A stretch of 60,157 nucleotides of DNA, the filler included, from Sluysia triapertura (lineage: Eukaryota): NCBI GenBank assembly GCA_046118255.1. It is 5 parts of 5 records of this genome, joined end to end, with 100 filler letters (N's around TTAATTAATTAA, not from the genome) between each part and the next. Parts side by side here need not be neighbours in the genome. Positions count along the whole stretch, not along the records: positions 22,704 to 36,206 come from JBJNIA010036371.1; 4 more parts are not named here. One strand, 5' to 3'. The notes below the pieces were generated by a model, which was given only the letters and a program-made list of their open reading frames with translations, made no database searches and had not been told where the DNA came from. Below are positions 7,836 through 47,431 of the stretch, piece after piece (position 1 is the stretch's first letter; the number at the start of each line of letters is the position of its first letter). The position numbers and the translations under genes are program-made.

Positions 7836-9449
7836 ATGAGTTACATTAAATTTTTCATAACTAACAATGCCACTAAGGTTCAGTGTGAAAAGCGATACCC
7901 TTTAAATTTAACTATTGGTGAATTTAAAGTAAATATTAAGAAAAAGTTATTTTAATGTTTAGGCTAAACTAGAATTAGTAACTGGATGTGATCATCGTGC
8001 TGTAAAATTGGAAGCATTCAATAATGATGATGAATTAATTTGTGTTTTAGATGATAATATGAAATCAATTGGTGATTATCCTGTTAAAGATGGATTTCGT
8101 ATTCATGCTACTGATCCGAACTTAAAAGGAGGTGAATTTGATGTACCTGATGATGATTCACAGCAGTTATATGAAATTTCTTATGAAGAATATGCAAAGA
8201 GGGAAGATACTGTTTTAGCTTTTAAGCGAAGAAACAAATTAGGTCAATTTCGAGAAATAGATCCTGAAGAAGAAAGGCGGAAGAAAGAAATTGAAGAAAA
8301 AAAACTTAACGAAGAAAAAGAAGCAGCAGAAAGTATGAAAATTGGTGATCGGTTAGTACAATGAACAGTATAAAATAAATAATATTAATAAAATATTTTA
8401 GATTAATATTAATATAATTCATTGATCATGTTTGTAGAATGAATTTAAATGTAAAAAATTTATTGGATATTTAATTTAAATTCATAGAGAAATAAAATTA
8501 GTTGTTTTTCTTCAGTTGTGAAGTAACAGTGCCAAAACAATCAGCAAAACGTGGAACAGTTAAGTATATCGGTTTGTTTAATTTAATTTATTATTTGATA
8601 AGGTTAATGAGTTTTGTGATTCTTGTATATGCATTTGTTTGTGGCATTTTTATTATTTTCAACAATGTGGAATGGAATAAATGTATTACTAGTGACATAT
8701 TTACACCAAATTTTTTTAATTGCCCTTGTCAGACCTACAGCTCCACATATGTTTCATAAATCTCAAATTGATGTGATCATGCGCCACTTGCAGTGACTTT
8801 TGTGAGATTTTACTAAATTATTATCTCTAAGAAATTAAAAATGAATTACTTCTAGTCATTTTTATTACATATTAATGCTGTTTGTTTGTTATGATTTTAT
8901 TATTATAAAGTTATTTCTGAAGTGACAAAGTTTAATTCTGTTCAGGTAAAGTACATTTCAAAAATGGATATTGGGTTGGAATACAGTACGATGAACCATC
9001 GGGTCTCAATAATGGATCGTTAGTGTTTTAGTTCATTTTTACAAACTTTTATACGATTCAAAACGTCTAAAGTGAAGAGCAACTTAATAATTTATTGAAT
9101 TCGTTCAAATTTTGTCGACAGTGTTGACACAGATGGCTTTAAAAATAGCAGTAAAGGAGATAAAATTCACATAAATTAGTAACATGTAGATAACACGTAC
9201 TAAGTCATCTAAGTGTGATGCTGATAAGGGTAGACCAGATGGAGTTAGTAAGAAAAGGTGATGTTTTAAGAATTACTATCTGAAGAAATCTTTACATTTG
9301 TATTATTTGTGGTTTGATTTATTTATTTTAGTGTCGATGGCAAGTTCTATTTCAGTTGCCCTGATAAGTATGGTGCGTTTGTGAAGCCACAGTTCGTTGC
9401 TGTTGGAGATTATCCTGAATTAGGATTGGATGATTTAGATGAAATATAA
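7836..9449 (+). CDS. TBCB: Tubulin-folding cofactor B; exons 7836-7928, 7963-8351, 8516-8571, 8946-9018, 9332-9449
   Basis: All four introns GT-AG with matching phases. Ubiquitin-like domain ([22 protein letters not shown]), coiled coil ([20 protein letters not shown]), CAP-Gly ([37 protein letters not shown]), typical end [14 protein letters not shown]. Confidence 0.95.
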
Positions 9450-9769
9450 TTAATTTTGTTTTGATATTTTCAACCGCTGTCTGGTTGTCAGAAAAGAATG
9501 TGAAACTATTTAAATTTAATTTTCCTATAAAAATTGAATCAACAAAGGATTCAGTTACTGTTTTATTTCGATACTGCAATTTATGGCCCCGTTTGAGGAT
9601 TGTAAATACATAATTGTATCTGGTAGTTCTGGTTTTATGGCAAGTTTTATTTACATTCAGTAGGACATGTGGCACATAGCATATGAGTGGTTACGATTAA
9701 CTGTTGTGCTTGTACAGGCACTTGCGTTTTTATACAATTGTGACAGTGTAATCATAATCTACAATTATG

Positions 9770-10271
9770 CAGGATGTCTCAAAAGTAACTGAACTGCAAA
9801 CTTATATAAGAATTAGATGCCAAAAACGACAAATTTAATATCTTTTATGTCATCTTCGCTACTATTCATTTCATTCTGCGAATAGTAGTCTTTGGAATGA
9901 CTTATTGCATGATCTTATTGATTTTCTTCTGACATAATTGCTTGATTTTTCTTAAACCCTCATTCTTAAAAATGCAGTGAAGGAATTTAGATTTAAACGA
10001 ACATACTTTCGTTATTAAGAATTACTATGCAAGGATAAGCTACAAGTATGTTGAAGAAAGATGGGGTGCAAACTGCAGAACACCTATACTGAGTAAGCCG
10101 ACAATGTTCAATCTTGCATCCAAGTTTAAAATGGAGGTGTGTCAAATGCTCCGATGTCGTGCTTGTATTGAAGTTCAAGGTGGAGATTTTGAACATTTGT
10201 AAATACTAAATATAACTTTTAAATTTGTCGATTTGATATCTAATTTTCATTTAAGTTTGCGGTTCGGTTAC
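9770..10271 (+). mobile_element. Internally deleted Tc1/mariner-superfamily element, same family as 32748-33459
   Basis: Left TIR CAGGATGTCTCAAAAGTAACTGAACTGCAAACTT; transposase C-terminus CIEVQGGDFEHL*; right TIR truncated at ...GCGGTTCGGTTAC. Confidence 0.85.
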
Positions 10272-11475: not shown

Positions 11476-11575
11476 NNNNNNNNNNNNNNNNNNNNNNNNN
11501 NNNNNNNNNNNNNNNNNNNTTAATTAATTAANNNNNNNNNNNNNNNNNNNNNNNNNNNNNNNNNNNNNNNNNNNN
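11476..11575. other. Assembly spacer N44-TTAATTAATTAA-N44
   Basis: Identical 100-bp construct occurs four times; the core gives stops in all six frames. Confidence 0.97.
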
Positions 11576-20199: not shown

Positions 20200-20759
20200 C
20201 GATTATTTTAATTTTAAATTAATTATATGATTTTATTTACAATAGTGAAATTTAATGTTTATACAATACGGTTTTATATAATCCCAATTTAAATTAATTT
20301 TTTTATTTATCTTATCAATCATAATATTGGAGTTGAATGTTTCTAAACTTTAATTTCCTATCATTTCTGTGCAATCTAAATTTAAGATGATTTAATTATC
20401 CAGTCAATTAAAGTTTAGTGTTGATAAAATTTTAATTTCATGTTATTTCTATACAATCTCAACTTAAGATGATTTAACTATTTTTTATTAAAACATGAGC
20501 ATTCTTAAAGCACGCAGAATTCTCAGATATTCCATTTTAATCAAACATTACACAATTTTATTTACGATATTTTGTAGAAAATTTTAATATTTTATGAATA
20601 TTAATTTACAGAAATTCCTTGTTGTACATTTATGTAATTTTCAAATAAATAAAAATTAATAAGATAAAATTAGTAAGGTAAAATTGCTAAGATAAAAATT
20701 AATAAAAGCGAAAAGAATTATATTAATATATGTTATACTTGTATTTTAATATTCCGAAC

Positions 20760-20974
20760 CTGAGGTACTTCATGATTTTTAACAGCACCAATAAATTCAA
20801 TTCTTGAGAACAATTGATAATCTTCTTTTACCTGTTCTAGATCAACTCGTTTGGGACCATGCCCAGCAATAATAAATCTTAATTTAGGATATTTTTGACA
20901 TAATTTTGGAATCACACCGCACAATAAATCAACTCCTTTTCTATAAACCAAGCGACTGATGACGATAGCAGTAA
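20760..20974 (-). CDS. PIGA: PIGA internal exon (GPI GlcNAc-transferase subunit A)
   Basis: TAIVISRLVYRKGVDLLCGVIPKLCQKYPKLRFIIAGHGPKR matches the PIGA SRLVYRKG motif; acceptor ttctattttAG, donor CAG|GTTCGG; 215 nt. Confidence 0.93.
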
Positions 20975-21209
20975 CTAAAATAGAAACAAAAAATAGTTAA
21001 AACATTTATTTATGTTTAATTGTAAAAAATATGTAGTGCAACAAATAATATTAAACTTAATAGAAAGAAATTCCAAAATGTATAAAATTTACTTTGTATG
21101 ACAAAGAAATGTAAATATGGTAAAATTATTGTATTATTTAAAAATTACAAGAATAAACATGAATGACAGAGTTGTAATAAAAATAATCATTTAATTTATT
21201 TATTGATAA

Positions 21210-22603: not shown

Positions 22604-22703
22604 NNNNNNNNNNNNNNNNNNNNNNNNNNNNNNNNNNNNNNNNNNNNTTAATTAATTAANNNNNNNNNNNNNNNNNNNNNNNNNNNNNNNNNNNNNNNNN
22701 NNN
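22604..22703. other. Assembly spacer
   Basis: N44-TTAATTAATTAA-N44. Confidence 0.97.
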
Positions 22704-22849
22704 AAAAGGAACTTTAAAGAAGATTGAGAATTTATAATATAACTTCTTAAAGACATAAGATAATGCGTAGAGCGTTTCAGTGTAATATTAACTGTTATTT
22801 TTTGCACTTCAAATGAATTAATTTTTGATGTTAGCATACACCTTAATGT

Positions 22850-23316
22850 TTTAAATTAAATAATGTTTCTGGCTGAAGATGTATTAAGGTGTAAATGTTT
22901 ACGATTCTTTGTGAATGCCGATTAATGTTTTTAAGTGAAGGTAATGTTAGAATATTAGGATTTAATGGTATAAGATCGTGAATTTATGGTGTTTGATTTT
23001 CTTTGGTGATGTATACTGATTAGTTTTGAATGTGATTGTGATTGAATTGTTTTGAGATCAAAGGCAAAATACTTTAGATGAATACTTTAGATGGTTTAAG
23101 ACGTTATTGTGGTTTGGATGTTATGAGGTTATGTGTTTAATTGATTTTGACGGATGAAGATGTTTTAAATGGATGTAAAAGAGAGTTATGAAAGTGTTCA
23201 AATGTTTATAAGTATAGTTTTTTGTAGAATGTGTTGATTTAATTTAGTGTTATTTTATGTTTATTTTGGGTATATTTAAAGGGAATGTTTATTAAGGAAA
23301 TAGGTTGGCCATCACA
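22850..23316 (-). mobile_element. LTR-like sequence abutting and interrupting pol
   Basis: Begins TGTGATGGCCAACCTATTTC on -, nearly identical to the terminus at 29094; A/C-rich and G-poor on -; no polypurine tract precedes it. Confidence 0.65.
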
Positions 23317-23800
23317 ATAGGTTCGGGTGAATTTGTTGTAAGTATTGAGCTGCATTATTATTATCGTTGAGATCCTCGAGTTTGATTTTAATATTGTTTA
23401 GCTGTTCGAAGGACTTTTTTAAAGTTTTGTTGTGGCAATCAACTAGAAGTTTGTAATGGATAAGAAAGTCGGCTCCTATTATTGGTTGCTGGACTGCGGA
23501 AGTTAGAAAAGTCCATTCGAAGATTTTATTAAAGTGTGGCAATTTAAATTGTAGTTTTCTGGAGCCATAGCAGGTAACAGTTGTTCTGTTACCTGCTGTA
23601 AGAAAGGAACGTGTCTCTGGTGTGTTTCTGATGAAACGTTGGGGGTATTACAGACACGGCAGCTTCAGTATCTATTAAAAAATCCAATTTGTTGTACTTA
23701 AAATCGGTAAAGGTTAGCGTCACTGTGAAGATACCATTAATTGCCAAATGTTTCGGTCTAGCCGCTTTGATCATTGGCAAATTTATTTTTTTGATGTTGG
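23317..23800 (-). pseudogene. Ty3/gypsy aspartic protease remnant
   Basis: FLIDTEAAVSVIPP (DTG mutated to DTE) and QQPIIGADFLIHYKLLVD in different frames. Confidence 0.88.
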
Positions 23801-23821
23801 GTTAAGATTTCTAATATGAAT

Positions 23822-24700
23822 TCAGCCATCCATGCATCTTTTAGAGTTTTTCTGAAAGTGTACATGATACACACATAAGTTTTTTATCGTTAAATTAGTT
23901 GATTTATTTGGGAATTTACATCCCAATAAGCAAGACTTGGCTTGTTGTTGGAATCTGTTGCGGTAGTAACAGATTCCGTTGAAAGGTTTTTTGTTTCTAT
24001 AAGAGGAACTTGTTGAGAAGGTGGGAGAATTGGTTCTTCTTATTGGTGAATTCTCTCTTGATTTTGACAATAATATTTTTGTGAGGTCTGAAACTTGTTT
24101 TGTAAGGTTTTGAACCTGTAAGAAAAGATTTTGAGTTTCCGTATTAGTTGTTGTTGCAGTGTATTTTTGGTTATTTGGAGAAGAATCATTCATTATGTAA
24201 AGAGGTTGTTGATGATTCTTATTCCAAACTACAATGATGTTATCGGCGATCTTAGTTAGTTCGTCGATTTTAGTATTTTGTGTTCCTGCGAGTATGCCTG
24301 AACTGTTAGGGATATAGCATCGAGGAACAATCGTAGTTTCCATTGAGGTCACATCCGAAGGGTGCTAAGTCTGTTTTGATTTTTTCTAAGAATTCGGAAG
24401 GTGAAAGGGTACCAAGTGTTTGTACCTTAAAGTAGTCTTGGAAGACTTTTTCCGAATTTGGGCGATATTCTTGTATGACGATTTGTTTGAGTTCGTCATA
24501 AGGAGATTTTGAAACGATGCACGTTTGAATTTTTGGACTGATTTTACTTAGAAGTGCTTGTGGTAACATCGCTAGGGTGTGATTAAACTTCATAGTTTGG
24601 TGTTTAATCGCACTGGTTTTAAACATGGCTTCAACAACCAAATACCATGTGCTTGGAGAACCTGTGTCATCCAAGAAAAATTGAGACGACGAAGGATCTT
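23822..24700 (-). pseudogene. Ty3/gypsy gag remnant, CsRn1-like (CHCC knuckles), frameshifted
   Basis: PSTWYLVVEAMF...KFNHTLAMLP...PYDELKQIVI...LGTLSPSEFL N-terminus; CYYRNRFQQQAKSCLLGC and CVYHVHFQKNSKRC motifs. Confidence 0.88.
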
Positions 24701-26692
24701 GATCAGTACGTGATGGGAGTTCAGGTTCGTCGTCAGTACCGCAAGGTAATTGGTGATTAATTGATATAATTGCCCCATCTGAAATGTCATAATCACTAAA
24801 CCTTAGATGAGGACGTAATGGTTGCCCTTGGTACGTAAACCATGCCTTATGGTGTTTTGTTGACTTATGAAGTATATTAACGGGATCGGAGTTTTGATTT
24901 TAAGGCGCGAATTTAGATTACACGCCATACATTTTACTTTTATATGTATTGTTTGATTGTTGCGGGTTCTCGAATTGGTGGCTATGTTAACCTCAGTATA
25001 TACGTGTCGCTCGAATGCCGTAGTAGAGTCAATTATTGTCCCGGTATGATTTGTTTTTGTTTTAAAATTGGACGAAGTATTGTTGAGTTTTTAGAACAAC
25101 TGTTGTGAATTTGAGTTTCTTTCGAAATTGTAGGTTCCGTTTTATTTAGTTCCTTATTTTGGATTTGATAGGTAGATTGTCTATTACGAGTATTCTGTTG
25201 TTTTTGATTTTGAATATTGGCTTTATTATTTATATTCTTAGTCAGTTGTTTCGATATGTTGTTAGGCATACTAGCCTGTTTGAATTTTAATTTGTTAGTC
25301 TGTTGATTTGAAGTGGCCCTAGTGGCACATTGAAATGGGGGACCTTATTTACAAACTTGTGCAAAGGATTTTTTACCATTTATTTTAGATTCATTTGAAG
25401 CCCACCTGAATTGTGATTTACGATCTGGAGTGGCCCTATGGTTAACTAAACCTTTTTGTTATATTATTTTTGTCAAAAACTGCGTTTGTGGCATGATTCA
25501 AAGGTGTGACCGGGGTGGTGGAAAACCCATAACATAAATTTTATTAATTTTATGTATCGGTGTTGTCCAATTTAAAAGGTATGGTGTTTATTTGTCTAGA
25601 CGATTTTTGTGTAAAAGGTTTTTGTATGTTGTTGTGAAAAGATTTTTTATTTATTTTAAAAGATGAAACTGGCATTGTATCATTTGTTGGCTGTTTGATG
25701 ACGTCGTTGTATAAATGTGTAGAGTTGTTTTTGTCTTTTGTCAGGTTTTGTGCAGATTTAACATTATTACATGAGTTGGTGACATAGTTAAAATGTCCTT
25801 TGATTGTTTAAAATTATTGCTTTCTACATGTGTATTGTTGTTCTTGTTTCCAAGATTTAGTGAAGGTTTAATACTATTGTATGAAATGTACTGTATTGGA
25901 TGTTTGTTGTATGATTCGAATAGTAAGGGTTGTAATAGTTTATTTATTGGTTGTATGATAGTATTGTTATGTGGACTGATGTTACTATTTTTACTAGTGG
26001 TTGTACTTATAGATGGCTTGATGGTATTACTTGAGTTTATAGAGTTTTTCTCTGTTTTCTTTGATTTGTGTTTAGTTCATGTTGGATTACGTGGGAGTAT
26101 AACGTGAAAATGGTTATTCTGTAGTTGAAAGGTAACATGTTTAGTCTTTTGATTTTCATAATAGTCTGAATTTGTATTAAAAGATGTATGATTATTTTGA
26201 AATTCGATGAGCCTAGTGGTTGTATTTTGTTGGTGATCATTAGAATTGTTATTATTTGTAGAATTACTAAGTGTAAATGTTGATATTATAATGTTATTGT
26301 TTTCAAAGGATTTTTTATATACAAAATAGTTTTTAAATATAATTTTAATGGCTTTTTGACATATTTATATTAGTATATATGAATTTATTCACATTTATAT
26401 TCTTATCGAAAAAATATGCATATTACTATTATAAAAATTGTTATAAAGGAAGTTAAGACTGTTTGCATATTTTTCTACGATATGATTGAGTTTATTATGT
26501 AAAAGATGTCCTTAAATATAAAAATTGTGAAGCATGGTCTGATGGCATATGCGGGAAATAACAGGATTTCTTTAAACTTCTGACACATTTTTTGTAATGT
26601 GCTTTTGAATATTAACTTATTAAATTTATTAAAATTCTTTAAAGTTATAAAAAACAAAGTTTCCTGAATCAGATTTATTTGAGACTTTACTT

Positions 26693-27172
26693 TTAATTTA
26701 AAAAAATGAATAAAAGATCATTAAAATTCCTAAATTTATTAACAAATACCACAATTATATTAAATGTTTTTATATTTTCCAAAATATACCATGTTGTCCT
26801 GTCACATGTTCTTAAATCTAAATCAAAATGCATAAATAATATCAGTTCGTTATAGAATTTATAAACTATTACTTTATTTGATTCAGCATCGTTAATTTCT
26901 CGAATTGACTTTGTATTCGGGTAATCTTCGGTTTTGATAAATTGAGTAGGTATACTGGACAATACTTGCTTCAATCTATTACGATGTGACGCTTGGAAGG
27001 TGTTGAAGAATGCTGGTTCTTGAAGTTGATTGATAGTATGCGCAAATCTACATCTATTTCCCAACTGTAAACATTGTCCATTCTGATGAGATCTGTAAGG
27101 ACAGAGTACTAATTCACAATATGTATTGACGTCAAATGAATTGTTATTTCTATATATATGTTGACAGCGCAT
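26693..27172 (-). CDS. CCCH zinc-finger ORF, probably a fragment of a retroelement accessory frame
   Basis: CPYRSHQNGQCLQLGNRCRFAHTINQL (C-x9-C-x6-C-x3-H) with the FAH-x3-QL tail typical of Unkempt/TZF-type fingers; 159 open codons in very AT-rich DNA. Confidence 0.6.
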   Translation of the reverse strand: MRCQHIYRNNNSFDVNTYCELVLCPYRSHQNGQCLQLGNRCRFAHTINQLQEPAFFNTFQASHRNRLKQVLSSIPTQFIKTEDYPNTKSIREINDAESNKVIVYKFYNELILFMHFDLDLRTCDRTTWYILENIKTFNIIVVFVNKFRNFNDLLFIFLN

Positions 27173-27273
27173 CTAATTTTTGTTGATTTTGGAATTAAAT
27201 TACAAATGAATTGTTATTTCTATATATATGTTGACAGCGCATCTAATTTTTGTTGATTTTGGAATTAAATTAC
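27133..27273. repeat. Perfect 70-bp tandem duplication
   Basis: CAAATGAATTGTTATTTC...GGAATTAAATTA starts at 27133 and again at 27203. Confidence 0.95.
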
Positions 27274-30200
27274 TAATTTGCGGATTCCCTGAAATTTTTT
27301 CCCTTATTTTGATCATCACTAGTTGATTTGTAAATAGAATTTAGTACTATATCCTGTCCTGCATTACTTTTTGTTTTAGATTTATAGATATAAATTCTTT
27401 TGAAACATTAACATCGAGCTTAAGATGGAGGACATGTAAATAAATATTATAAATGGGTATTTCATCAAATTTTTCTAGAATACGTTTCCGTGGTTCCTCA
27501 TCATAATCATTGATTGTTTTGTCAATTTTAAACCATTTGAATTGAAAATAATCTCGGACGTACAAAAACGAATTAGGCAAATTATCGCTAAAACTGGATA
27601 AACAGTATCTTTAGATTTATTATTCATTTTCGATATAAAACTGCATTGCTTACGACGACTTTTAAGGTCTACTAAACTGGTTGAGATTTGATAACTTGAC
27701 CGCATCATCAGAAACCCAGCAATGAATAACTCCTCTTACTGTAGATACACACAAAATATTTTTGGAACAAATGTCTACAGTTAGAATATACTGCAATATC
27801 TTTATTTCTGCGGTAATCAGAGTCCAACAATTTTTATGCGCATATGGTTTTGAAGAAAACTTTCGATTATAATCATGCTTTGTTATGTCGATATAGTGCA
27901 CTAAATCTTTAGAACCCGCTTATGTTTCCATATAATTAGAATCATTTTATAATTTATTCAAATTTTGTGACAAGGTACAACAGGTGAAACAAACCAAGAT
28001 TTATCGTATCTCAAATTATTGACGAATTTAAAATTATCAATCCAATAATGAAGAGACATTACTATTTTTGACAAAGTTGTTAACGTCTGGTTATAAAATG
28101 CAAAAGTTAATTTGTAGTTATTTATCAAAATTGCTTACGCTGTTTTTTTGTAACTAATAATTGTAATGTGTTAATTATAGTATCACTATTTTTAGTTATT
28201 CATAAAATTGACCACTCTGATACTGCAACCAATAATTGTACTTGTAATTAAAGTCAGTAAATTGTTTTCTAGTAATCTCCACACTGCAATTGGTTGCCCA
28301 ATCAAAGCGAGAGAAACAAATGAAATTAATAATAACTTGATTGGGCAGTCAACAAAAATGTTTAACAATTGATTAATGGTGTGTAATAAAATGTGAAACC
28401 AAACTACTATGAATAGTAACAAGAATTTATGAGTGAAATGAATAAGTTTGTAGAGAACTTATAACCATAATGAGTAGTGACATTAAACTATGCATGTGAA
28501 TTAAATTTGTCACCACTCATGTTGGTAGTTACTGATTTGATTTTAAATAAAATGAATATGGACAATCTGGAATAAAAATGATGATAATAATAATAACACT
28601 AATGTTATCATTATTTTAATAAAAATACATAAATTCTTTGAAAACTATAACAAGAACTTTCTTAAATAAAATTCTTTTTCTAAACATATTTAAATCTTTA
28701 TAATTTAATATTTTTAAATATCTGCAAGGTTGAATGTTGAGAAATTATGACTTAAGATGTTTTGAATTAGTTTTAAATGTATGCTTGATGTTTTAAGATG
28801 CAATTGTAGTTCTAATGTTGTACGATAATGTGTAGAATGTTTTAAATGGATTTTTAAATGTTATTTAATGGTTTTAACTGGAGATAAGTTATAGTTTAGA
28901 TTTTTGGTACGTTCTAAAAGGTAATTGTGCGATGTTGAAAAATATGATTTTCGTTATGTTGGCATTGAACTATGTATGAAAATGTTTGTGATGAATTTTT
29001 AAAATATGAATTGTAGATTTTGAAGGTGAATGCGATTTTGATTAAAGAAAAATTTTTAACACAATTTGTTAAAAGAAATAGGTTGGCCACCACATCCGAC
29101 AGAATGTTCTTTTCTATTTTTAGTAGGAAATTTTCTTAAGTTTTCTTTTTTAGGAATTAAGTTTCTCTTTGAAAATTAGTGCAGTAAAATAACAAATAAC
29201 TCTTATAATTTAACAAATAGATAAAATGTAGAAATAAAATATTGAGATAAAAGTACTTGAACTTTCAAAATTTGCATATTTTCTTATATAGTTTTAATTC
29301 TTTGAGAGGTGAGTAATGCTGTGAAAGATAAATTTGATAGGATATTTATATGATAATTTGTGAGTTATGTTTTGGTCTACCATAATTTATTTTCCCAAAT
29401 TTTAATGTGAAAGTTTAATATTTTTTTACTACTGCCGACCTTAAAAGAACTATTTAACTTTCAATATGTACGAATTGTCCTGAATCTTCCTCAGTAATTT
29501 ACTTTCTAAATGATACTTTCGCGATTTTTTAAGATAGCCTGAAGTGAATCAAATCTATGTATTCAACAGTTAAGACATCAAATGGACAATCACAGTTATA
29601 TAAAAGCTATTACACCTTTCTAAATTCTTCACTTATAAAATCTTTTAGGTTCCAGGATCAGGAGAAATATGAGTTATCGAAAAATTTAGATATTTAGAAC
29701 TCATCTTAGGAGTAAGTTTTGGGGGCAGTTACAGTGTCATTTAGTAACTTTCAGGATTTGTTAAATGATTATTATTTAGAGTTACACACAGACTTGTTTT
29801 TATTGTTTTTTGTAATTAATTTTAAACCAAATATTTTTCGGACTAGTTTGTTCAGTTTTGTTTCACATATTGATCGTCCTTTCTACAACCTCATACAATT
29901 AGGCGTCGTATTTTCAATTTTAATTTTAATCAAATGAATAACAATAACATAGAATTCGTATTTAAATTATGAGATTTGAAAATGTTAGATTTATAATAAA
30001 AATAAATACTTGCTAGAATGATTCGAAACTAAACAGTAAATTTTGGTCACACATCGAACTTCCCATAATTTTTCTCCCGTCTTCGGATTTCAGCAGAACT
30101 GAAGTGAAGCTTGGTTTCAAACCATTTCGAAACTTAGTCTCGAATTTTAAAATTTTGTAACAACAGTTCGATATTATCGAAATTATAGTTTAACAATAGT

Positions 30201-31488
30201 TCCTTTCTTTTGACTTTAGACTTAAAAATTTGGTGGCATAAATATTATGAAAATATGTTTAAAAAAATAAAATTGATTAAAATTTTAAGGTTGCTTAGTC
30301 ACCAAACCAAACCCCTTAAGACGAAGAGTGTAAGGGTAACTATGTTGACGCATTAATTGTTTGGTTAAATATTTTAATTTACAAAATCCTACTCTTCACA
30401 CCGTGGTGTAATTTTATTTTATTAATGTTATTTTTAAACTTATTACTTTGTAGTAATTCACATACATAATAAGTGGGCCTACAATTTTTATTATTATTAT
30501 TATTTGAATTCATAAAAAATAATTAAAAAACTATAAAATACATATAATACATTTATTTAATTATTAACGGTTTTTCTTATTTAAAAATCCTTTTTATTTA
30601 CGTGAACATTGTTTGATGATATTCTATACATTATTTATATTAATTGATAAATTCCTGTTTTCATTATTTTAACATCAATAAAGCATGATATATTTTCCTA
30701 ATTGTCATTACTAATGTATTCAATGAAACATCTTCGATAATGTGTGATGGCTCAATTCATAACGTCTAATTTTACTACAGTAACATCGCATAATAAATAT
30801 ATCTAACAAAATTTTTAATCTTAATCACACATTCTTAGATTATCAAATAGTTCTTCGTACAACTATTCGTATTTTACAACTTCACTATTATTTTTATGAT
30901 ATTATTATTATATTATAGCAATTCTAAATGAAAATGGTCGAATCTGGGCCCTAAATTTATTATTGGTATTTTAATTAAAAATTGTGTATGTCTTGCCAAA
31001 TCAAGGAAATGCTAATTGGCTACATCGGTGTCAATTCACATTTCAATGGAGCAAAGATTGTATTTTATTATTAAATAAATTTAAGACAAAAAAAGAAAAA
31101 TTAGTTAAAATAAAGCAATATTGAATTCTAAGTAAGATAAATGTTCAAATTTTATTTATTCAATATTTGAATCGGCACGACATTTCGTATAATTTCTATT
31201 TTTATTTACTATATTAAGAATGGATATTAAAATTAAAAATTTTGTAACAAAAAAGGTTTTTATATTTTTTGCTTTTTTTAATCTTTGGGTCATGAGTTAC
31301 TTAATTCCTTCTTTTAATAATTGATACTGCTATAAGATATAGTTTAATTGGGATAAATTTTCTTATTCTAATAACAATAAAATAAAATTCTTGGTGGAAC
31401 TGCATTCTCATTCGAACAATAAATATGAGAAGTGTGATTGTAAGCAAACCTTCCTTTCATCAACTGACGTTTTTAAATTTACGTTTAG

Positions 31489-31685
31489 ACAGTTGGTTAT
31501 TTACGTCGAATGGATTGTTTACCTGAATCATTATTGAGGTTGAAATTTCTTCAATGTCGTGATTTATTTTTGACCAATCAGCTACGTACAATAACGTCCA
31601 ATCCACAATCGGAACCATTTTATCGTGCTACTAAGTACATGGAGATAACTCGAGTTCATCTATTTGATATTGCAACTCAATATAG
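31489..31685 (+). CDS. COG8: COG8 internal exon
   Basis: TVGYLRRMDCLPESLLRLKFLQCRD...RVHLFDIATQYR matches the COG8/Dor1 domain; tttAG acceptor, AG|GTTAGA donor. Confidence 0.92.
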
Positions 31686-32059
31686 GTTAGAAATTTGTTA
31701 TTATTATTTTTTATTAGGGGAAATCTTTAGTATTTATTTGATAAAGAAAATCTTTGAGGAATATTTGTCTTGCCCATAATTAGCGTAAAATAATTGGTCA
31801 AATAAAAAACTGTAATACTCCGATTAACAGGTTTGGCTTTTATCCCAAAACCCCAATTGAATATCCCAGTAAATTTTACGAAGAATGGAAAACAAAGAAC
31901 AGTAAAAATTAAACCATTCAAAATAATGTTCTAATATTGCGACACTTTAAAACTATCCAAGAGGAAATTGCTGAGATACGATTTCCTCTTCATTGGTGGT
32001 AGGATTTAAATGTAAATGTAAGAATCTAGCGTACATTTTTGTAATTTTTCATAATTTAG

Positions 32060-32684
32060 GGCGGTTTTTAGCGATGATGATGTCCATATGCCATGGTCTT
32101 CAAATTCAATACCAGGCGATGATTCTAACATACAAGCTACATGTTCAGCTGCTTCTATTTTCTGCTCATGGTTGCTACGTCGTCTTGATTTATTGCGTTC
32201 AGAACTGGCGCGTGATCTTGATCTTCTCATCAACCCTATTCACCAGAACAAGCTGTCCGGATCGGAACATCAAGACTATCTGTATCCGTCACCGTCTTCG
32301 CTCGGTTCTCGTCTACACAGTCTGCTAGGTCAAGCCATGTATTTTGGACTAAGTCTTGCTCGTTTGGGTTCTGATTTTCGACCCTTGTTGGTACCTGTGT
32401 TTGAAAGATGCATTCTTTCGATGTGCATCACACGTATTAACAACATAACACACTTATTTATCAATCAGCTTACATCTGCTACTCAGTTTTGTATCAACCC
32501 ATCTGTGTCATGTAAAGTGCCTCAAGTAATCCCCGATAAATCGGAATTAGAATCTGAGATCTCTCCACCAACTTCTCTTATGAACTGGCCAATCCTAGCA
32601 ATTTTACTGAATCAATATTTAATTCTATTGGAAGATTTGCGTCATTGTACTCCAGTGACCCTTACAAAACAGTTAGTATTAAAA
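32060..32684 (+). CDS. COG8: COG8 internal exon (3' end either 32671 or 32684)
   Basis: Phase-2 join gives QYRAVFSDDD; SLLGQAMYFGLSLARLGSDFRPLL and PPTSLMNWPILA...LRHC are COG8 motifs. Confidence 0.9.
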
Positions 32685-32747
32685 GTACTTCTTTGTATAG
32701 TTTGTTTCGCGAGTACCACGTTATTTGATTATACATTTTTCTCTATA

Positions 32748-33459
32748 AAGGGTAGTGTTCCAAAAGTAACCGAACCGTAAACTTAAATAAAAATTAGATA
32801 TCAAAAGCGACAAATGTAATTTCTTTTGTCATTTTATGTTATCTTCACTACTATTCATTTCCTTCTGCGAAATGACTTTTGCTGCGTGATATTGATTTTG
32901 CTTGATTTTTGTTCTGCCTAAGCTTCTGGACTCATTCTTAAAAATGCATCGAAGGACTGAACAAAATTTGGGATAATGATAATCCTGATCGTATTATTGA
33001 AGCAGAAGTCAATGTTTTTGGAGTCACAGTCTAGGCTCCAATCGACAACAATAGTTAATGGTGAACGTTACCTTCGTTTTCATTTTCAAAAAGATGTAGT
33101 ACCAACGGCTTGGATTAGACGTTGGATTGGACGCCGAGGACCAGTTGAATGGTCTGCCAGATACCCGGATCTGACACCGCCTGATTTTTTTCTATAGGAA
33201 GTTCTAAAGAACTCAGTTTATGCTAAAAAGCATAGAACAATTGATCAACTAAAACAATGTATTTAGCACGAATGTCACGAAATTTCAGACGAAACTTGCC
33301 AGAATGAATGTCGCAGTGTTATCAAAAGATGTCGTGTTTGTATTGAAGTTCAAGGTGGACATTTTGAACATTTGTAAATACTAAATGTACCTATTAAATT
33401 TGTTTTTTATATCTAATTTTTATTTAAGTTTGCGGTTCGGTTACTTTTGGGACACCCTG
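32748..33459 (+). mobile_element. Internally deleted Tc1/mariner-superfamily transposon in a COG8 intron
   Basis: About 70-bp TIRs (CAGGGTGTCCCAAAAGTAACCGAACCGCAAACTT), TA flanks; RWIGRRGPVEWSARYPDLTPPDFFL*...CIEVQGGHFEHL* with in-frame stops. Confidence 0.92.
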
Positions 33460-34154
33460 TATATAGTCAATTTTGCTATAATATATTATACATTTTAATA
33501 TTATTTCGGTATGGAAAATTCTCTCCACATAATAGTTAATTACATTCTATAATATAGTTCTAGTTATATTTTCATCCTCTTTATGTTTTTGGTGTTTTCT
33601 ACGGTAAATTTACATCCGCATTAATTTTTTTCTATACTATATCTCCACCCTAGTACTGTTTCAGGTTTCCAAGGATGAATTTTGTAGAAAAAACAAAGTC
33701 GGTTGATAACTTACAAAATAAGTAGCCATATTGCCATTTAAGCGACAGATTGTTGAGGTATTATCTATTTTTCTTCTTATTATCTTTTCGATTTTCAAAA
33801 TTTCACGTTTTTTGAGTTTGTTGATGTTCTTGAGTTTTTTTATTAAGAATTTGTTTATCTCTTTGTTAAAATTATTTTAGTGCCACTGTTTTACGTTTCC
33901 GGCCCGTGCGTATATGTATTTATTTTAAACATTTGTATTGTGTAGTTTCATTTTCTGAATAATTTGATTTGTTATTTTTAAGATTTATTTATGCTTGTCA
34001 GTAGTCAATGATTATTACTCATTTGAAAATTATTCTTAAATTCTGAACTTTACATTGGTTGCCAATAAAAGCAAGAATAGAATTCAAAATCATGACAATA
34101 AGTTACAAATGCGCCTACATTATCAATTAGAAATAATAATAATCTATATAGAAT

Positions 34155-34280
34155 CCACAGTGATAATAAGAGCTAGGTGATAGGTTGTATACCGTTGTTT
34201 ATGTTTCAAAAATATACAACCAATTCCAGATACGTCCAAACATTCTCTCATTCGACATTTATAAACGATTAAAATTTTCT
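34155..34280 (+). mobile_element. 3' remnant of a LINE (CR1/L2-like); second copy at 57069-57150
   Basis: Shared CAGTGATAATAAG...GTGATAGG...TATACCGTT...CAAAAAT.TACAACCA; translation KIYNQLPENVI resembles the N-x-LP ORF2 tail. Confidence 0.45.
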
Positions 34281-35259
34281 GTGGTTACAGTAAAACTGAC
34301 CTTTTCGTTGACATCACATCATCGACAAAAATCCTACACTAATTCCTTCATAATCATATTCGTCGTTTAGTCAGTTTTACTCTTTAATAAAATTTAAATC
34401 TTATTCGTATCTTTTTACATTTATATGGCCAAATTTCTTAATATAATTCTGGCTGCATTTTCATCTGATTTATTTATTTGTTATTTTCTACCTTCTACAT
34501 TATAACTATATGTGTATATGTCTTATTATTAATTCATGTCTTTACATTTCTATTGGCTAATTAACTGTGATAAACTCCATCTTTTATTTTTCTTGTCTAT
34601 TTTCAAATTTCTAATTTTATTAAAGCTCTTGAATTCTTATGAAGTATTTATTTTAAAAATTATAATTATGAGTTATCGTGAATACTTTGGATTCATCCGT
34701 TCTTCGAAGTGCTTAACCATTTTCGTGTGAGTATATTTCACAATGTGGCACAAAATTTATTCGCTGTAAAATTGTTAACATTTCGCCAAGTAAAATAGCC
34801 GATCACTACTCTTTCTATTTCACTCAAGTATTCTATTCAAAATCGCAAGAAGTTGATGACTCGCTTCGAAAAATATAGAAATCCGAATGAAAGTAATGAA
34901 CTGACGACACTAGTAAATTATTTATCCATAATCACAATCATATACTTCCATAATTCTAAGTACGGAGTAGACGTGTGATACAAACAAATCTAAAATATCG
35001 TATCATATATTGTATACAAGTGATATAGCCAAGCGCTAACATAAATAAACAACGCATACTCAATTAAACCAAGTAAATTCATCAGGACGCGGAAGTTTTG
35101 CAAATAAAATTACGAAATTCAAATTAAATTGTATTTCATTGAAAAGATTATTACGAGAAATACAAACTAATTTTATTTGAGTTTTACCTCGTAATTTAAT
35201 AATGTATTAATTAATTAATTGATTATTAATTCCAATTATAAACTTAACTGATCGACTCT

Positions 35260-35950
35260 GACATTGTGAATAATAATAATAATAATAAAAATGAAGGTAA
35301 TAGTAATAATGATAATAAAAAATGAAAATAAAACACAATCACACATTAGTTCTTTTGACTTCTTTCTAAAAAAGGAAAGTGTAACAGAATGATTCTTTCT
35401 TAACGTGGCATTTCTCTTTCGTTTAAAATTCTTTACTTTTCATTTGTCCTTATTGTCTTTTAAAAAGAATTTATTCAATAATAACGAAAAAAGGTACAAT
35501 GCAGTTAAATATGTTAAGAGAAATTGATAAGAGAATGTCTAAAGAAGAAGATAATACGTAACTAAAGGTGTTAAAGAAATTCCATTTTGATTATAATGAT
35601 GTTTTGGAAATAATTTTGAAGTGTAAATTTAATGTTTTTCAATGATATTAATGATTTGAATATTGAAGAATTGTGAACTTAAAATGTTTTGAATAAATTT
35701 TGAAATGTATGTTTGATAATTTTCGATGTTATGAAATTGTGAATTTAAAATGTTTTAGAGTATCTAAAATTTTGATGAGTCTGGAAAAGTAAAATATAAA
35801 ATGTTATGAAATGAGATATTTCGTGTGTAATGTTGAATTAAAATTGCGAATGAAAATGTTGGACACAATTACTTAGATAATTAATTACAATTTTGAGTAG
35901 AACTTCATGTGGGTTTTCCAACTTGCATTTAAGATGCGATTGGTTAATGT
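35260..35950 (-). mobile_element. Strand-skewed LTR-like repeat, close relative of 44990-45477
   Basis: AAAGAAATTCCATTTTGATT and ...AAAAGTAAAAT.T.AAATGTTAT.AAATG.GAT... shared with the 45 kb copy. Confidence 0.6.
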
Positions 35951-36206
35951 CATCATTAGCTGATTATGGGCGTAGGGTTTTCATTTTTGTTATAGTATTT
36001 AAGTTTTAAAATTTTAATAAATAATTCATCTACGTTTAATGCAACTTTTTGTTTAATACATGATGATTTATTATTACGACATACGTGCTTAAGGCACTTG
36101 AAATATTTTGGATTAGAAGTTTGGAGATAACAATTAATATAAAAAGACACGAAGATTTTATTAATGTAACATTTAAGTAAATCTACAATCAGTTTATTGG
36201 AATATA

Positions 36207-36306
36207 NNNNNNNNNNNNNNNNNNNNNNNNNNNNNNNNNNNNNNNNNNNNTTAATTAATTAANNNNNNNNNNNNNNNNNNNNNNNNNNNNNNNNNNNNNN
36301 NNNNNN
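36207..36306. other. Assembly spacer
   Basis: N44-TTAATTAATTAA-N44. Confidence 0.97.
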
Positions 36307-36499: not shown

Positions 36500-38105
36500 T
36501 TATATTACATATTCAGAGATCATCAAATAGTTCTTTATACACCTATATCTTAAAAAATATATAATTTTTAATATAATTTTTTTTAATATGTAAATATTTT
36601 AATTTTATAAATTGCAATTTCTTTTAATTTTTGAATATAATTTTTAATATTATTTTAATTCAATTTAATTTTAAAAAATGCAAATAATAATTTTCAAAAT
36701 ATTATATTAAGAAAAAAGTTAATTACAAGAAAAGGTTAATTAATTAATTAATTTTATCTAGATTTACATAAATCATAAAAAAGAATTATTATCAGAAAAA
36801 CAGTACGGTAAAAAATAAAAGAATTTATTTATTTATCAAAAAATATTTAATTATTTATCAAAAATAGGCAAAAAATCAAAGAAATATTTAAATATATAAA
36901 AGCAGAATTAGTTTACAAAAAACACACAATTATCTCGAGAAGTACAAGTCCTATTCACTAGCTTTTCGTGGAAACGTCATTACAGAAGAAATTTTTCAGT
37001 CAATTTAGTCGAAACGTTACTGATTGCAGAAGAAATCTTAAACACTATCTTTCACTGAGGAAATTTTATCATTGGAAACTTTACAATTTTGTTTAGCAGT
37101 CCATGTCATATAAGTATATTGTGTTAATATTTCGCATCAAAATCTACTTAAAATCATTTCAATAATCCATCCAAGCATTCGCCCAGATTAAAATCTTCGT
37201 TAAATTTGTTTTATTTTTATCCACGGAGAAATTCCAGAGTTTATTCTTATTATTATTATATATTGCCTTGCTATTTTGTTCCACTAATTGTTATTTTGTA
37301 CGAATATAATTTTTGTAGAAACTTTATAATTAATCGTTGTTTTTCAAGTAATTTTTCATTTATTAAATTAAGAATTTTTTTAAATTGAGAGTTAAGCCCT
37401 AGAATAAAGAGTTTTTTGAATAATAAAATTTGATTCAAAGAATTTAAAGTTAGTTAATATAATTAAAAATAAAACTAAATTAAGAAGACTCAGATTAAAC
37501 TAAATCTACATTTACGTGATTGCATTAAGTTATAAGGATTGTTAACGTAGTTTTTTGACTTTTGACATCTTGTGAATACGTCTTCCTTGAGATATCGTAT
37601 ATCGATATATCACAGGTGAACCCGAAGAGAATTAATAATATTATAATTGTTTCAGCATTAATAAGAAGCCGAACAATTATTTGGCGCCCGAATTGGGACA
37701 TCATAAGTAAAAATATGAGTTTTTAATTAAAGTAAAATTATTTACAGTTAAATTAAAAATTAACTTTGTTAAGCATATATTGTGAATTTTATTGTTAGAT
37801 TTTGTGATATAAGTTTTAAAGAAAATTTATAAGGAAAATAGAAGCGGGCTACGCATAATTAATTGATTAGAGAATATTAAAAGTAAAACGAAGAAAAATA
37901 TGGAAGAAACCATAGAAGATTTAAGAAATTGTATAAGGCATCTTTCTGTAAGTATGAAACCCGCAGTTATTTTCCCAGAAATGCGTAAATTTAATGGAAA
38001 TGAAGAATAATTGTGTGATTTCCTTTTCGAATATGACAGCGTTGCAGAAGTCACAGCTGGTCAGAAATAGATAAGATTATGAGAATTCAGAATTACACAA
38101 GTAAA
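36500..38105 (+). mobile_element. 5' part of an LTR retrotransposon: LTR (start uncertain), PBS, truncated gag
   Basis: PBS above; from 37900 MEETIEDLRNCIRHLSV...PEMRKFNGNEE*LCDFLFEYDSVAEV/SWSEIDKIMRI, a typical gag N-terminal pattern. Confidence 0.65.
37682..37699 (+). promoter_or_regulatory. Retroelement primer-binding site, tRNA-Lys(UUU) type
   Basis: TGGCGCCCGAATTGGGAC matches the known Lys3 PBS TGGCGCCCGAACAGGGAC at 16/18; lies 6 nt after an ...AACA LTR-like end. Confidence 0.85.
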
Positions 38106-38523
38106 TAAATCACAACATTATTCATTAAACTATTTCATTCCTAACACTAAACGTACCACGACCAGTCAAATGACTGCTTTTAGTTTTTACTTTAAAAAAA
38201 TAATGTGAAATTGTATTGCTTTTGACTATTTTGTAATGACTTTTAATTTATGTATAATTTTATATTTAATTTTACATATGGGTGTAGTGTTCAGTTTATC
38301 CATAAATCTCTAACACATACAACACAAACATCCACTACACTTTACATCAATATATTACAACCTAAATAAATTATAACCTTTTGATTCCGATAATATATAA
38401 TGTAATAAATTACAATAAATTGTTACTTTCAATCCGCCAATATCGCTCTACTCAAATATACCATCATAGTGTAATTTTTACATTCTCCTTTTATTTGTAT
38501 TTTTTCAACACAAAATTAAAAAT

Positions 38524-38570
38524 AGCTCGAAATCCGATGTTTGGCCTGTTGGTATTCTTTTATATCAAAC
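38524..38570 (+). pseudogene. Protein kinase subdomain IX fragment (SSKSDVWPVGILLYQ)
   Basis: Matches the KSDVWSxGILLYE consensus. Confidence 0.55.
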
Positions 38571-38743
38571 TGCGGTCATGTTTCAATATCGTGCTACTAT
38601 AATATCTGAACGAGTTCATGGAATTCATTCTAGTAATGTTATTCAAGAATATTGCTATTTGGGTCTTTATCCATTTACATGTAGTCAAGTTAATGTAGTT
38701 CTTAATCGTATGTATTGTGCACGGCTTATTGCTTTATTGTGTC

Positions 38744-39404
38744 ATGGAGATGTTCATTCAGAAATGCCAAATGGCCTTACGAAGGACTTCCACCAGAAGC
38801 AGTTATACACAGAGTTGGAAACGGTTTCAAAGAAACTTTAAGATCGCAACATTCTCGTGAATATAAAGATCTTTGACATATGTGTTGGGCATCAATGCCT
38901 GAATCAAGACCACCTTCCACAACAATTAAGTCATACTTCTCATATTTTGATTCCTCAAACTCAGAAACACAACAACCTCATTCACAAGGTATGGCGCCCA
39001 ATGTTATGGTAGCACAACAATCGCAGCATCAACAAACTACCCCATCTCAAATACAGATGCATCAACATATGCAACGGATTATTCAACAGCAATTACTGCA
39101 GCAACAAATTTCTGGAGGTTCTGTAAACCCTGGAAGTTTACAAGTTCCACATCTCTATCCAAACAACACAACTGTACAGCGAAAACCTACAGAAACCGTT
39201 ATCAGTAATAATTTTTCTCTTACTAACACATCTAATACTACTCCCGTGACAAATGCAGTTTCTGATGCACCAAATAATTCTGGTGATTCTACAAATGCTG
39301 CCAATAGCGCAGTTATCGGAAATAGTGCACAGACCAATTTAGCTGTAACTGCTAGTGTTTCCATTGAAAATACTAGTACAAATAATACTTCTACCCCATC
39401 GTAA
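38744..39404 (+). pseudogene. KSR/Raf-like kinase subdomain X-XI fragment fused to a Q/N/S/T-rich tail
   Basis: MEMFIQK/WPYEGLPPEAVIHRVGNGFKETLRSQHSREYKDL*HMCWASMPESRPP aligns with the KSR pattern E-x5-WPF-x3-P-x-EA-x-I-x3-G-x-G-x-K...CWA...RP; 7-nt duplication at 38762-38768 and TGA at 38874. Confidence 0.65.
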
Positions 39405-39789
39405 TTTAGTTTTAAAATGTATAATTTTATTATTTTTGTAAATTCAATTTATAGTGTATCATTTTTATGGTTCCGATGTGTAGAATGTAATTAATTTATT
39501 TTTATTGTTTCTTGTAGATGTAATTTTATATTGTTTACAAGTTTATTGATATATAAGATTATGAATTATATTAATTTGTGCAATTATTTTATAAAGCTTG
39601 TTTAAATATACAGAAATTCGGATAAGGTATCTGTTTGCGAATTTGTCGGTTAAGAAAACTATATACTGCACAAGGTCAGGAGTAAAATTTTAAAAATTAT
39701 TTTTAAATTCTTTTCAAAAATTTTACAGAATTACAAACAGTCAAGACTAAACGAACAGTAAAGATAGTACTATTTGAAATTTTTGTTAG

Positions 39790-40540
39790 AAAATTTTAAT
39801 TCGATCGCTTTATGCAGAAACCTAAGTGTGATTTCTCTAAAGAAGCGGGATCAGTAGAACTAACTGAAGATTCATTTACAGTTGATTTTAAGAATCCTAA
39901 ATTTTTAGCAGATGTTAGTAAAGCGTTATTAATGGAAGATCTCAATATAAATGCAAGCACACCATTGAACCGTTTAATCCCAACAATACCATTAAGATTA
40001 GATTATATTTTATGGATTGATGATTTACTCAATGTTCTAAACAAGAAAGAGAATGTTGTTATTTTTGATATTGTTTGTAGAACTAGTTGCATTTATCCAT
40101 TACTTGGTGTTAAATATGATTCAAATTGGAACCTCATTACTTCCGAGGCTGATGATTTTAATTGTCAAGTTACTTTAGAAAACGTAAAAAATAATTACCA
40201 AGATCGTGTTAAAATCATGAAAACAAGTACAAATATATCTTTTTTAGATTGTTCATGTAATTTTCCAGAAATTAACGTAGATGTTGTAGTTCGCCATCCA
40301 TCATTTTTTTGTAGACAGTAAAGACAAATCAGGAGTATCAGTTACAAGAAAGATTGATAGAAGAAATTCATCTAAGACATTAAATGATGTTAGTCGCATG
40401 TATAGCTATCATGAGGAACGTGGATAGATAAGTTTTGTAAAGAAATTAGATGTTGAAAGTATTATAAAGATAGCATTCGAAATTTCAAAATGTATTTTAA
40501 ATTTATTAGGAAAACAAAATGAATTCAAACAATTGTTTGG
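39790..40540 (+). pseudogene. METTL16: METTL16 (RlmF-family m6A methyltransferase) pseudogene
   Basis: VDFKNP, RLIPTIPLRLDYILWIDDLL, SCIYPLLG are diagnostic. SAM motif DIGTGA decayed to DIVCRT and catalytic NPPFF to HPSFF; frameshift near 40315 and TAG at 40425, then ISFVKKL..ES...LLGK. Confidence 0.88.
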
Positions 40541-40899
40541 CCAGTACGTGCGTACGAAGTGTTGTCAAGTGATTTTTAATCATATTCAAATAGCGCGGAT
40601 GCCAGTTCATACAGATCGTGGAACCGAGCGGGTTAAATTTTGCTCAGAGGGTCTTGTTTTCGAGCTACCCGGCGAAGAATTCTGTGGAACCCAGTTGTAT
40701 GAAACGGTACGACATGTGGTAAAAATTTTTGTTTTTGACTCATATTCATCATCATCCATTTATTGTTTAGACCTTTTTAATCTTACTGAAATTGTGATCT
40801 TCTATGTTTTAAAATCTTTTTTAGAATATGTTAATAAAAATTGTTGTTTTTATTTTCAATTATTTATTAAAGAAATTAACACTAATTATTTTAATGTTT

Positions 40900-42020
40900 A
40901 TACAGACCTTAAGTCTGAGTTTTCTGGTAACAATATCATAACCTCTAATTTTAAATTAAATGCTATTATACCCCGGCCATCACATATTGGTCTATGTGTT
41001 GTTTTAAAATTAGTTTACCCAGTCAGAGCAGTTTTTTAATGAAGTAGGAAATACACGCTCTGATTGTGTTGTTATTTGTGTATGCAACCAGTATATGTGT
41101 AAAGCTGAGAACCATCATCAATAGTGATGTGTAAATGACAAGAATGAATGAAGTGTCACTACTGATGATGGTGACGATAAAATTTAATTCATTAAAAATC
41201 AATTATTTAAGAAATAATTTAAAAGTGCAAAAAAATAATAATAATGCTAACAATGTATATAAATTGGTAATAACAATAATAATAACGACAATAACGTTGA
41301 TATTATTATTGTTATTAATAAAGAAAATACATAAAATCTTTGACACTATGAACACAATCTTTTCTGTATATCTAAAACATTTCTTACATATAAAGTGAGA
41401 TAAAAGAAAAAGAAACAAATGTTAGAATAATTCATTGAAACTTATTAAAATTTTATACTTTGAAAACAAAATTTGTGCATTAGTATTAATGGTTTTGGAT
41501 GCTTGTTGAAAGGTTGAAGTTATTTTAATTTTGAATGATGATTACAAAATAAGTCTCAGTATATTATAATGCTATTACTGGTAAGCATCAACGATGAACA
41601 TGTGCATGTGAAGTGTATTTTGGTTGGTGTAGTTGATTGAAGGTTTTGATGTAAGTGATCTATGTTTCAAAGGTATTTGTTAGGGTTATTTGATAAAGTT
41701 ATTATATTTAGGGTTTGTGAAGTTTCTCTTATGATTGTGATTCGTTAGTTGAAATATTTAGTGAATGAATGTTATGAATTATTTGAGGTAAAATGTCGAA
41801 GTTTATCGTGCTATAAATGGTTGAGATATTAGTTGAATTGTTGATGTATGTAAGTTAATGAGATGTTGTAATTATCGAATATTTTTTATGATGTTTGGGA
41901 TGATGTAATTCGAAAGTAGAAAATATGGTTGTTTTAAAATCTGCATTTTAATGAAATTTGGTTTGTGAATATTAGCTGTAGTATATTAATGGATTTTGAT
42001 TATGAGTGTTGACCACTACA
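40900..42020 (-). mobile_element. Strand-skewed LTR-like repeat
   Basis: Begins TGTAGTGGTCAAC on -; shares AAAATACATAAA.TCTTTGA.A.CTAT and the (AAT)n block with 28570-28650. Confidence 0.6.
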
Positions 42021-47331: not shown

Positions 47332-47431
47332 NNNNNNNNNNNNNNNNNNNNNNNNNNNNNNNNNNNNNNNNNNNNTTAATTAATTAANNNNNNNNNNNNN
47401 NNNNNNNNNNNNNNNNNNNNNNNNNNNNNNN
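47332..47431. other. Assembly spacer
   Basis: N44-TTAATTAATTAA-N44. Confidence 0.97.

Follow-up and report, generated by a model that had tools for sequence, protein, structure and literature searches.

The DNA considered here (hereafter the window) is a stretch of 60,157 nucleotides, filler included, from Sluysia triapertura (assembly GCA_046118255.1). The contig at 22705–36206 of the window carries on its minus strand a locus that begins with TGTGGTGG at 29094, runs through host-like coding pieces into a Gag gene, and stops after a protease remnant at 23317. We propose, with a confidence slightly better than even, that this locus represents the decayed fragment of a Ty3/gypsy retrotransposon of CsRn1 type with cargo upstream of Gag, likely assembled by template switching and likely once transcribed as a single RNA from the LTR-type head. 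The order and common strand of the parts, their domain matches, the multicopy state of both halves, and the loss of reverse transcriptase (RT) and integrase at the locus are all observed. What is new here is the cargo cassette directly upstream of a Gag; the locus itself is dead. The full size of the element is not measurable because the locus stops after the protease remnant without RT, RNase H or integrase (no match in any frame of 22705–36200, with 27 frame pieces scanned), and 5.8 kb of element are in view (Table 1). The DNA has a GC content of about 25% and contains spliced eukaryotic genes, for example a Dor1/COG8 gene at 31489–32780. The window joins separate contigs, so adjacency across its N spacers carries no meaning.

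Table 1. Parts of the locus, in order from its head, and spacers of the window (positions along the window)
Feature	Position	Strand	Description
LTR-type arm T1	28520–29094	-	TGTGGTG start, A/C-rich, G-poor; inner end undefined, may reach ~28150
(AAT)n/(ATT)n palindrome	28572–28620		fold z -3.6 to -4.4, 25 shuffles per scanned segment
Hairpin, 19-nt arms	28464–28526	-	first arm contains TGGTGAC at 28515
Double palindrome with CCAAT/ATTGG boxes	28215–28352	-	directly before first coding piece
Partial primase small subunit (PRIM1-like), decayed, eukaryotic	27350–27919	-	~residues 105–316 of ~420
Perfect 70-bp tandem duplication	27133–27272		between primase piece and finger
159-aa open frame	26693–27172	-	one Unkempt-type CCCH finger, then predicted helical tail without match
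AT-rich join, finger cassette to Gag leader	26372–26630	-	weakest link
Low-complexity N/T/S/K/Q-rich coding remnant	24900–26371	-	leads into ubiquitin-like unit
Ubiquitin-like unit, C-terminal part	24738–24899	-	ends Leu-Pro-Cys-Gly, in frame with Gag
Gag	23822–24737	-	DUF7041, then two decayed CX2HX9CX3C motifs; one frame break
Aspartic-protease remnant	23317–23801	-	two frames; DTEA for DT/SG; IIGADFL; ends in linker before RT
Second TG arm T2, TGTGATGGCCAACCTATTTC	22705–23316	-	directly after protease remnant, runs to contig end
N spacers	11476–11575, 22604–22703, 36207–36306, 47332–47431, 58110–58272		four with six-frame stop linker

The earlier note on this DNA had described a TGT terminus at 29094 about 4.4 kb from gag and had called the element CsRn1-like, and both statements stand. 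On the minus strand TGTGGTGGCCAACCTATTTC starts at 29094, with a near copy at 23316, and the DUF7041 match falls at ~24659–24438 (E 8.1e-11, 42.6 bits, cut-off 28). We take DUF7041 to be a Gag domain, which agrees with its position and with the two decayed CX2HX9CX3C (CHCC) motifs that follow it. In the first of these motifs (23971–23918) Arg stands for His, and in the second (23875–23822) a stop stands for the last Cys; 58 contigs differ from the window at the Arg codon, so this loss looks private to the window copy. The 5' motif of the CsRn1 long terminal repeat (LTR) is TGTGGYG in Table 3 of PMC3601003. The start at 29094 matches it exactly and that at 23316 has one mismatch, and the 7-mer occurs three times in the window, both strands counted. 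CX2HX9CX3C is the signature of CsRn1 Gag, with the order gag–protease, in the passages of PMC2582038 that treat it. Because two separate features, the terminus motif and the Gag signature, agree, the CsRn1 type is supported. To judge by its sequence, the locus is a truncated CsRn1-type derivative and not an intact member, and the missing LTR pair, polypurine tract (PPT) and 4-bp target-site duplication (TSD) do not bar such descent; the far end lies beyond the contig. While the locus shares the terminus, the Gag signature and the gag–protease order with the CsRn1 clade, it differs in the 4.4 kb before Gag with a primase piece, a finger and a ubiquitin-like unit, in its two CHCC motifs, and in the lack of RT, integrase, PPT and LTR pair. 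PwRn1 measures 5.4 kb, and the AgCR elements, among the rows listed, 4.2–5.9 kb with LTRs of 146–381 bp. The clade comprises CsRn1, PwRn1 and AgCR1-14, with Kabuki and Boudicca named in the portion of PMC8220671 available; the words "ubiquitin" and "zinc finger" do not occur in that portion.

The space between terminus and Gag was said to be filled with same-strand open reading frame (ORF) fragments, and the coding signal bears this out for 24900–27920. As a measure we counted the stops or frameshifts needed to cross a stretch and compared them with 300 local dinucleotide shuffles. From 24900 to 27920 the minus strand has 17 such breaks against 36.9 ± 3.2 in shuffles (0/300 as low), and the plus strand has 36 (42/300 as low); 146 control stretches have a mean of 39 breaks, and the only two as low lie over gene-rich 38000–41500. 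By segment, shuffles were as low in 2/300 cases for the primase piece, 0/300 for the finger, 0/300 for Gag and 9/300 for the protease, and in the Gag leader the excess is clear in 25500–26300 (0/300) and weaker in 24900–25500 (17/300). The low-complexity part also has some plus-strand excess (6/300), and composition therefore contributes there. Across 26300–26700 there are three breaks (7/300), and no clear non-coding gap is seen on the minus strand from 27920 to 23317. The head (29094–27920), which takes up some 1.2 of these 4.4 kb, has no coding excess (79/300 and 57/300). One fragment listed earlier, 26240–24700, is indeed same-strand coding, but it consists of several overlapping pieces in three frames and not of a single ORF.

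The cargo begins with a piece of primase. The fragment at 27901–27347, previously listed among unknown ORFs, was rightly seen as coding on this strand, but it is recognizable: it is a primase piece in one frame with five in-frame stops. It matches Pfam PF01896 (E 6.9e-8, 33.5 bits, cut-off 26.8, profile positions 8–140 of 163), and 16 of its 18 PDB matches are primases (best E 7.9e-10), with an alignment that is strong over residues 105–188 and weak up to LDVNVSK near residue 314. There is no intron-sized gap across 78–86 aligned residues, and Tyr stands at the first Asp of the FDID of the PDB chains. The ends of the enzyme (~residues 1–104 and 317–420) were not found in any frame, and no primase match lies upstream; because both ends are missing, the piece is regarded as a passenger. 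With these residues missing, the Tyr and the five stops, it cannot have been a working enzyme. The following ORF, 27172–26693, is open as claimed (159 aa), and its CCCH finger has the spacing C-x9-C-x6-C-x3-H at 27103–27038. The profile zf-CCCH_UNK matches with E 7.2e-5 and 23.1 bits, under its cut-off of 31.1, and the frame's structure model is of low confidence (predicted local distance difference test, pLDDT, 43.8). The finger shares this spacing with Unkempt (Pfam PF25427; PDB 5ELH) and aligns with residues 95–132 of 5elh_A at E 0.13, but it is single, is under the Pfam cut-off, and has no match for the remaining frame. A representative protein library gave one match, a generic tandem-CCCH protein (E 3.2e-4).

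Between the finger and Gag lies a leader without Pfam match at E 0.01, followed by the ubiquitin-like unit, which like the primase piece had been overlooked; the claim of a captured cargo upstream of gag is supported at this locus, and for more than the finger. The unit matches the Pfam profiles ubiquitin and Rad60-SLD, both at E 3.4e-4 and 20.8 bits (cut-offs 25.4 and 23.8), and ISG15 at E 0.17. Its first strand is probably in another frame, up to ~24952 by eye. The structure model of the unit is of low confidence (pLDDT 37), and a fold search with the structure models returned no match at E 0.001. The stretch from finger to Gag contains no TG arm, and thus no other 5' LTR for Gag is in view. 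The leader was also considered as a decayed LTR and rejected: alignments of 25000–26300 to T1 or T2 are not above shuffles, the same is true of T3, and T4 is borderline (52 against a best shuffle of 51). The protease remnant has no Pfam or PDB match and is known from its motifs and position. Stable folds occur at 23510–23659 (protease) and 23910–24009 (CHCC), with z near -4 to -5 for either strand in 25 shuffles; they may contain a signal for packaging or frameshifting.

The head combines arm, palindromes and hairpin, and part of it recurs. On another contig, a head copy at 42020–41050 (minus strand) has the start TGTAGTGG, an A/C-rich arm, the (AAT)/(ATT) palindrome near 41362–41262 and a hairpin in which, by eye, one base pair has changed from G-C to C-G through a substitution on each arm. 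As a unit, arm, palindrome and hairpin are repeated at 42020–41100 with a score of 154.7 (best of 200 shuffles 135.2), and the hairpin of this copy was matched by 0/1000 shuffles. The CCAAT double palindrome is promoter-like, with a putative function to match. TGGTGAC at 28515 agrees with 7 of the 12 nt of the tRNA-Trp primer site and lies 4 nt after CA (85/3000 shuffles). As a primer site it was weakened and not accepted, being part of the hairpin and reading TAGTGAC in the second head copy. T1 and T2 have about 26 nt of terminus and their composition in common. Their pairing as the LTRs of one insertion was rejected, since their global identity of 62% compares with 61% for shuffles; they are relatives and not two LTRs of one insertion. 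Further TG-type A/C-rich arms at 35870–35500 and 45475–45200 (minus) are 79% alike and related to T1, and are probably lone LTRs.

Other copies were viewed in contigs from a single sequencing run, possibly the one behind the assembly; 968 contigs were compared over 24800–28700, 473 of them less than 90% alike. Summed contig depth is not copy number and allows rough comparison only: it is 10,600–39,600 for Gag and protease, 230–1,690 for finger and primase piece, 99–287 for the inner non-coding head (27944–28700), 50–304 for the Gag leader (24931–26371, with one spike of 3,258), 144 in 26503–26633, and 4094 in 28555–29004 of arm T1, to which related arms occur elsewhere in the window. The window's own contigs have a depth of 14–21 and no differences, and because one of them spans 26252–26738 the join exists in sequenced DNA. 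Both halves, primase–finger and leader–Gag, are multicopy in this run. At single sites, up to 35 contigs differ in the primase piece and 34 in the finger, and 17 differ at 24926 and at 25511. Primase and finger are connected at other loci by joints as well (27105–27357, whose shorter side has 96 letters; 27061–27249; 27158–27231), and the last of these, in two contigs, lacks one unit of the 70-bp duplication. The ubiquitin-like unit is chained to the leader at other loci (24961–25197, 25071–25579, 25667–25745, 26037–26122, 25654–26331). One joint, 27554–26429, was not used, as its direction is reversed and it may reflect either a tandem arrangement or a chance match in AT-rich sequence. Other copies differ in length where the frames of the window copy break, so several frame breaks look private. 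Among the window-versus-contig differences listed, a selected few of more than 400 and more than 1400, the synonymous share is 3/12 for primase, 1/7 for finger and 11/31 for Gag and protease; these rows are silent on selection in the family and fit neutral decay of the window copy only. Around KKSFAQV in the leader (25338–25380) the summed depth is near 12,000, similar to the value at 24862 in the ubiquitin-like unit. This hints at a long N-terminal extension in the abundant Gag family too.

The one-unit reading can be divided in two. A subfamily sharing the whole layout seems the likelier of the two, though at less than even odds, and the similar depth of head and Gag leader is what one subfamily would give, on a rough comparison only; a recombinant confined to this or a few loci we hold to be rather unlikely. 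In the history we envisage, the head (29094–28150) would have supplied promoter and integrase end, and the reverse transcriptase would have jumped onto co-packaged mRNAs, fixing primase piece and finger behind the head. The pieces in front of the capsid gene were likely picked up from host mRNAs. Translation of the leader would have yielded the ubiquitin-like unit and Gag, and a cut behind the unit would have freed Gag from any leader; because of such cleavage, cargo could be tolerated upstream. The primase piece would have been a passenger; the finger may have acted by binding RNA of the element itself. Insertion or recombination would later have placed a further TG arm behind the protease, followed by decay of the copy. 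Ubiquitin inserted directly before a viral protein serves cytopathogenic pestiviruses as a cleavage signal for host protease, and by this analogy the unit would be a host-protease cut site. The likeness lies in a ubiquitin-type unit before a viral protein, while the differences are an unrelated virus group and the Cys-Gly end here, which either speaks against the cleavage reading or is decay.

A wider proposal, which we consider unlikely though worth stating, is a CsRn1-type lineage with an exchangeable cargo slot, made up of promoter head, variable host piece, fixed CCCH finger, spacer, and a ubiquitin-like cut site freeing Gag. If true, this would be a built-in vehicle for gene capture and exon shuffling, and the engine of the hairpin–cargo–CCCH cassette. 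If the layout is common to other copies, it would show how an LTR element can carry changing host genes before Gag with the capsid kept; if the join is only local, the locus is no more than a common accumulation of decayed repeats. The cargo-slot proposal hangs on one link of about 250 bases, from finger to Gag leader.

It is at this link that the strongest rival enters, namely that two independent repeats, a Gag-less cassette family (TG arm, hairpin, CCAAT boxes, cargo and CCCH finger) and a 5'-truncated fragment of an abundant family of ubiquitin-like unit, Gag and protease, were joined in DNA through an insertion or deletion and never co-transposed. We consider this possible but on the unlikely side. 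Several observations count against a single unit, and some of them fit the rival directly. The narrow join 26370–26640 has no coding excess (51/300). At 26372–26502 the mean depth is 25.7, close to single copy, where the window's own contig has 14.2. Other copies in which finger and gag are linked were looked for in the contigs, and among those listed (15/41 joints, 12/13 replaced joints, 8/1028 pieces) none from another locus crosses 26372–26502, a coverage hole that proves nothing. The C/G skew also changes near 26300, from 0.12–0.22 above to 0.57–0.61 below. TG arms are common, five in 60 kb, which makes a chance neighbourhood possible, and after the head copy at 42020 neither cargo, finger nor Gag was found on its strand. 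The ends of the element are likewise poor: T1 and T2 are unmatched as an LTR pair, there is no purine tract in front of T2, and neither PPT nor TSD was found at the locus. No convincing primer site is present, since TGGTGA[CG] arises in 261/3000 shuffles, the head copy at 42020–41100 reads TAGTGAC where 28515 has TGGTGAC, and no 12-mer match to the tRNA-Trp site with up to three mismatches was found in the element. The ubiquitin-like unit, finally, ends in Cys-Gly and not Gly-Gly and scores under the Pfam cut-offs. On the other hand, two joined repeats would require a same-strand juxtaposition, the loss of the Gag family's LTR and the absence of a non-coding gap, while the head terminus and Gag are both of CsRn1 type and the depth dip lies within a stretch of 18% GC, in which contigs from other loci readily escape notice.

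Much less probable is a duplicated host chimeric gene of head, primase and finger with its own CCAAT promoter, a lone LTR before it and a gypsy fragment behind. The CCAAT double palindrome stands where such a promoter would, directly before the first coding piece, and the strand skew that marks the retroelement parts is missing from the primase stretch. However, arm, palindrome and hairpin recur jointly at 42020–41100, which ties the promoter-like part to the TG arm, and the contigs that differ at single finger and primase sites, up to 34–35 of them, also argue against a host gene. The giant lineage of the earlier note in its strong form, Burro-like with a long functional polyprotein and a finger serving silencing control, is the least probable reading of all: coding remnants do span about 3 kb upstream of Gag, and the section of PMC6431247 concerned gives Burro accessory ORFs upstream as well as a ubiquitin/SUMO-like domain (PF11976), but there Burro exceeds 30 kb and has an N-terminal Gag with CCHC knuckles, with extra domains and an in-frame env behind it in the polyprotein, while here a CHCC Gag follows the cargo, no env, BIR, MATH, BCL2 or other Burro-type domain matches in any frame of the contig, and a normal pol and 3' LTR would bring the element to about 10 kb.

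Returning to the truncated CsRn1-type element with cargo before its Gag, its likeness to the planarian giant gypsy elements Burro/GYPSM1 is limited to extra host-like domains, including a ubiquitin/SUMO-like one, and upstream accessory ORFs. Gag type, domain order and size differ from what is given in the parts of PMC6431247 and PMC11410931 available, and neither primase nor CCCH is listed as a domain in that section of PMC6431247. LTR elements can capture multiple genes by template switching, and the chimeras re-amplify as non-autonomous elements, according to the available part of PMC5131818 (Tan et al. 2016). The locus appears to resemble these retrocopies in holding partial host stretches, derived from several genes, within the sequence of an LTR element; the primase piece, a putative intron-less copy, is flanked on both sides by such sequence. 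In the copies described in that part of PMC5131818, which are young, cargo replaces the internal ORF and the joints have microsimilarity, while here cargo lies upstream of a retained Gag–protease in old copies. Within the open-licence PMC and bioRxiv literature, with repeat databases outside this scope, we found no primase, Unkempt finger or ubiquitin-like unit before a CsRn1 Gag.

Searches for relatives were also made further afield. Relatives numbered 0/128 candidates for the finger ORF and 0/341 for Gag among longer proteins, and 0/68 for the primase region among proteins, in searches limited by word or length that are weak evidence. Scans of viral contigs gave no loci related to Gag, primase piece or finger, a metagenome scan gave none related to Gag, and the terminus pattern in metagenomes gave three loci without similarity past 20–23 nt. 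No second finger, primase or Gag copy was found within the window. The tRNA gene search found none, and the Rfam search of 22705–30000 gave no match at E 1.

The remainder of the window holds host genes and other repeats. A METTL16-type methyltransferase frame at 39800–40321 (plus strand) is uninterrupted and decayed-looking (Methyltransf_10, E 4.6e-24). On the same strand, the 203-aa frame at 40428–41039 has no match and ends against the opposite-strand head copy. Besides the Dor1/COG8 gene, host gene pieces include DnaJ plus CSL finger at 5774–6229, a ubiquitin-like piece (Ubiquitin_2) at 7963–8364, and a glycosyltransferase group 1 at 20733–20996. High-depth short repeats lie at 32600–34900, with a summed depth of up to 266,000 in 33955–34404, and are related to those at 9766–10271 and 46979–47154.

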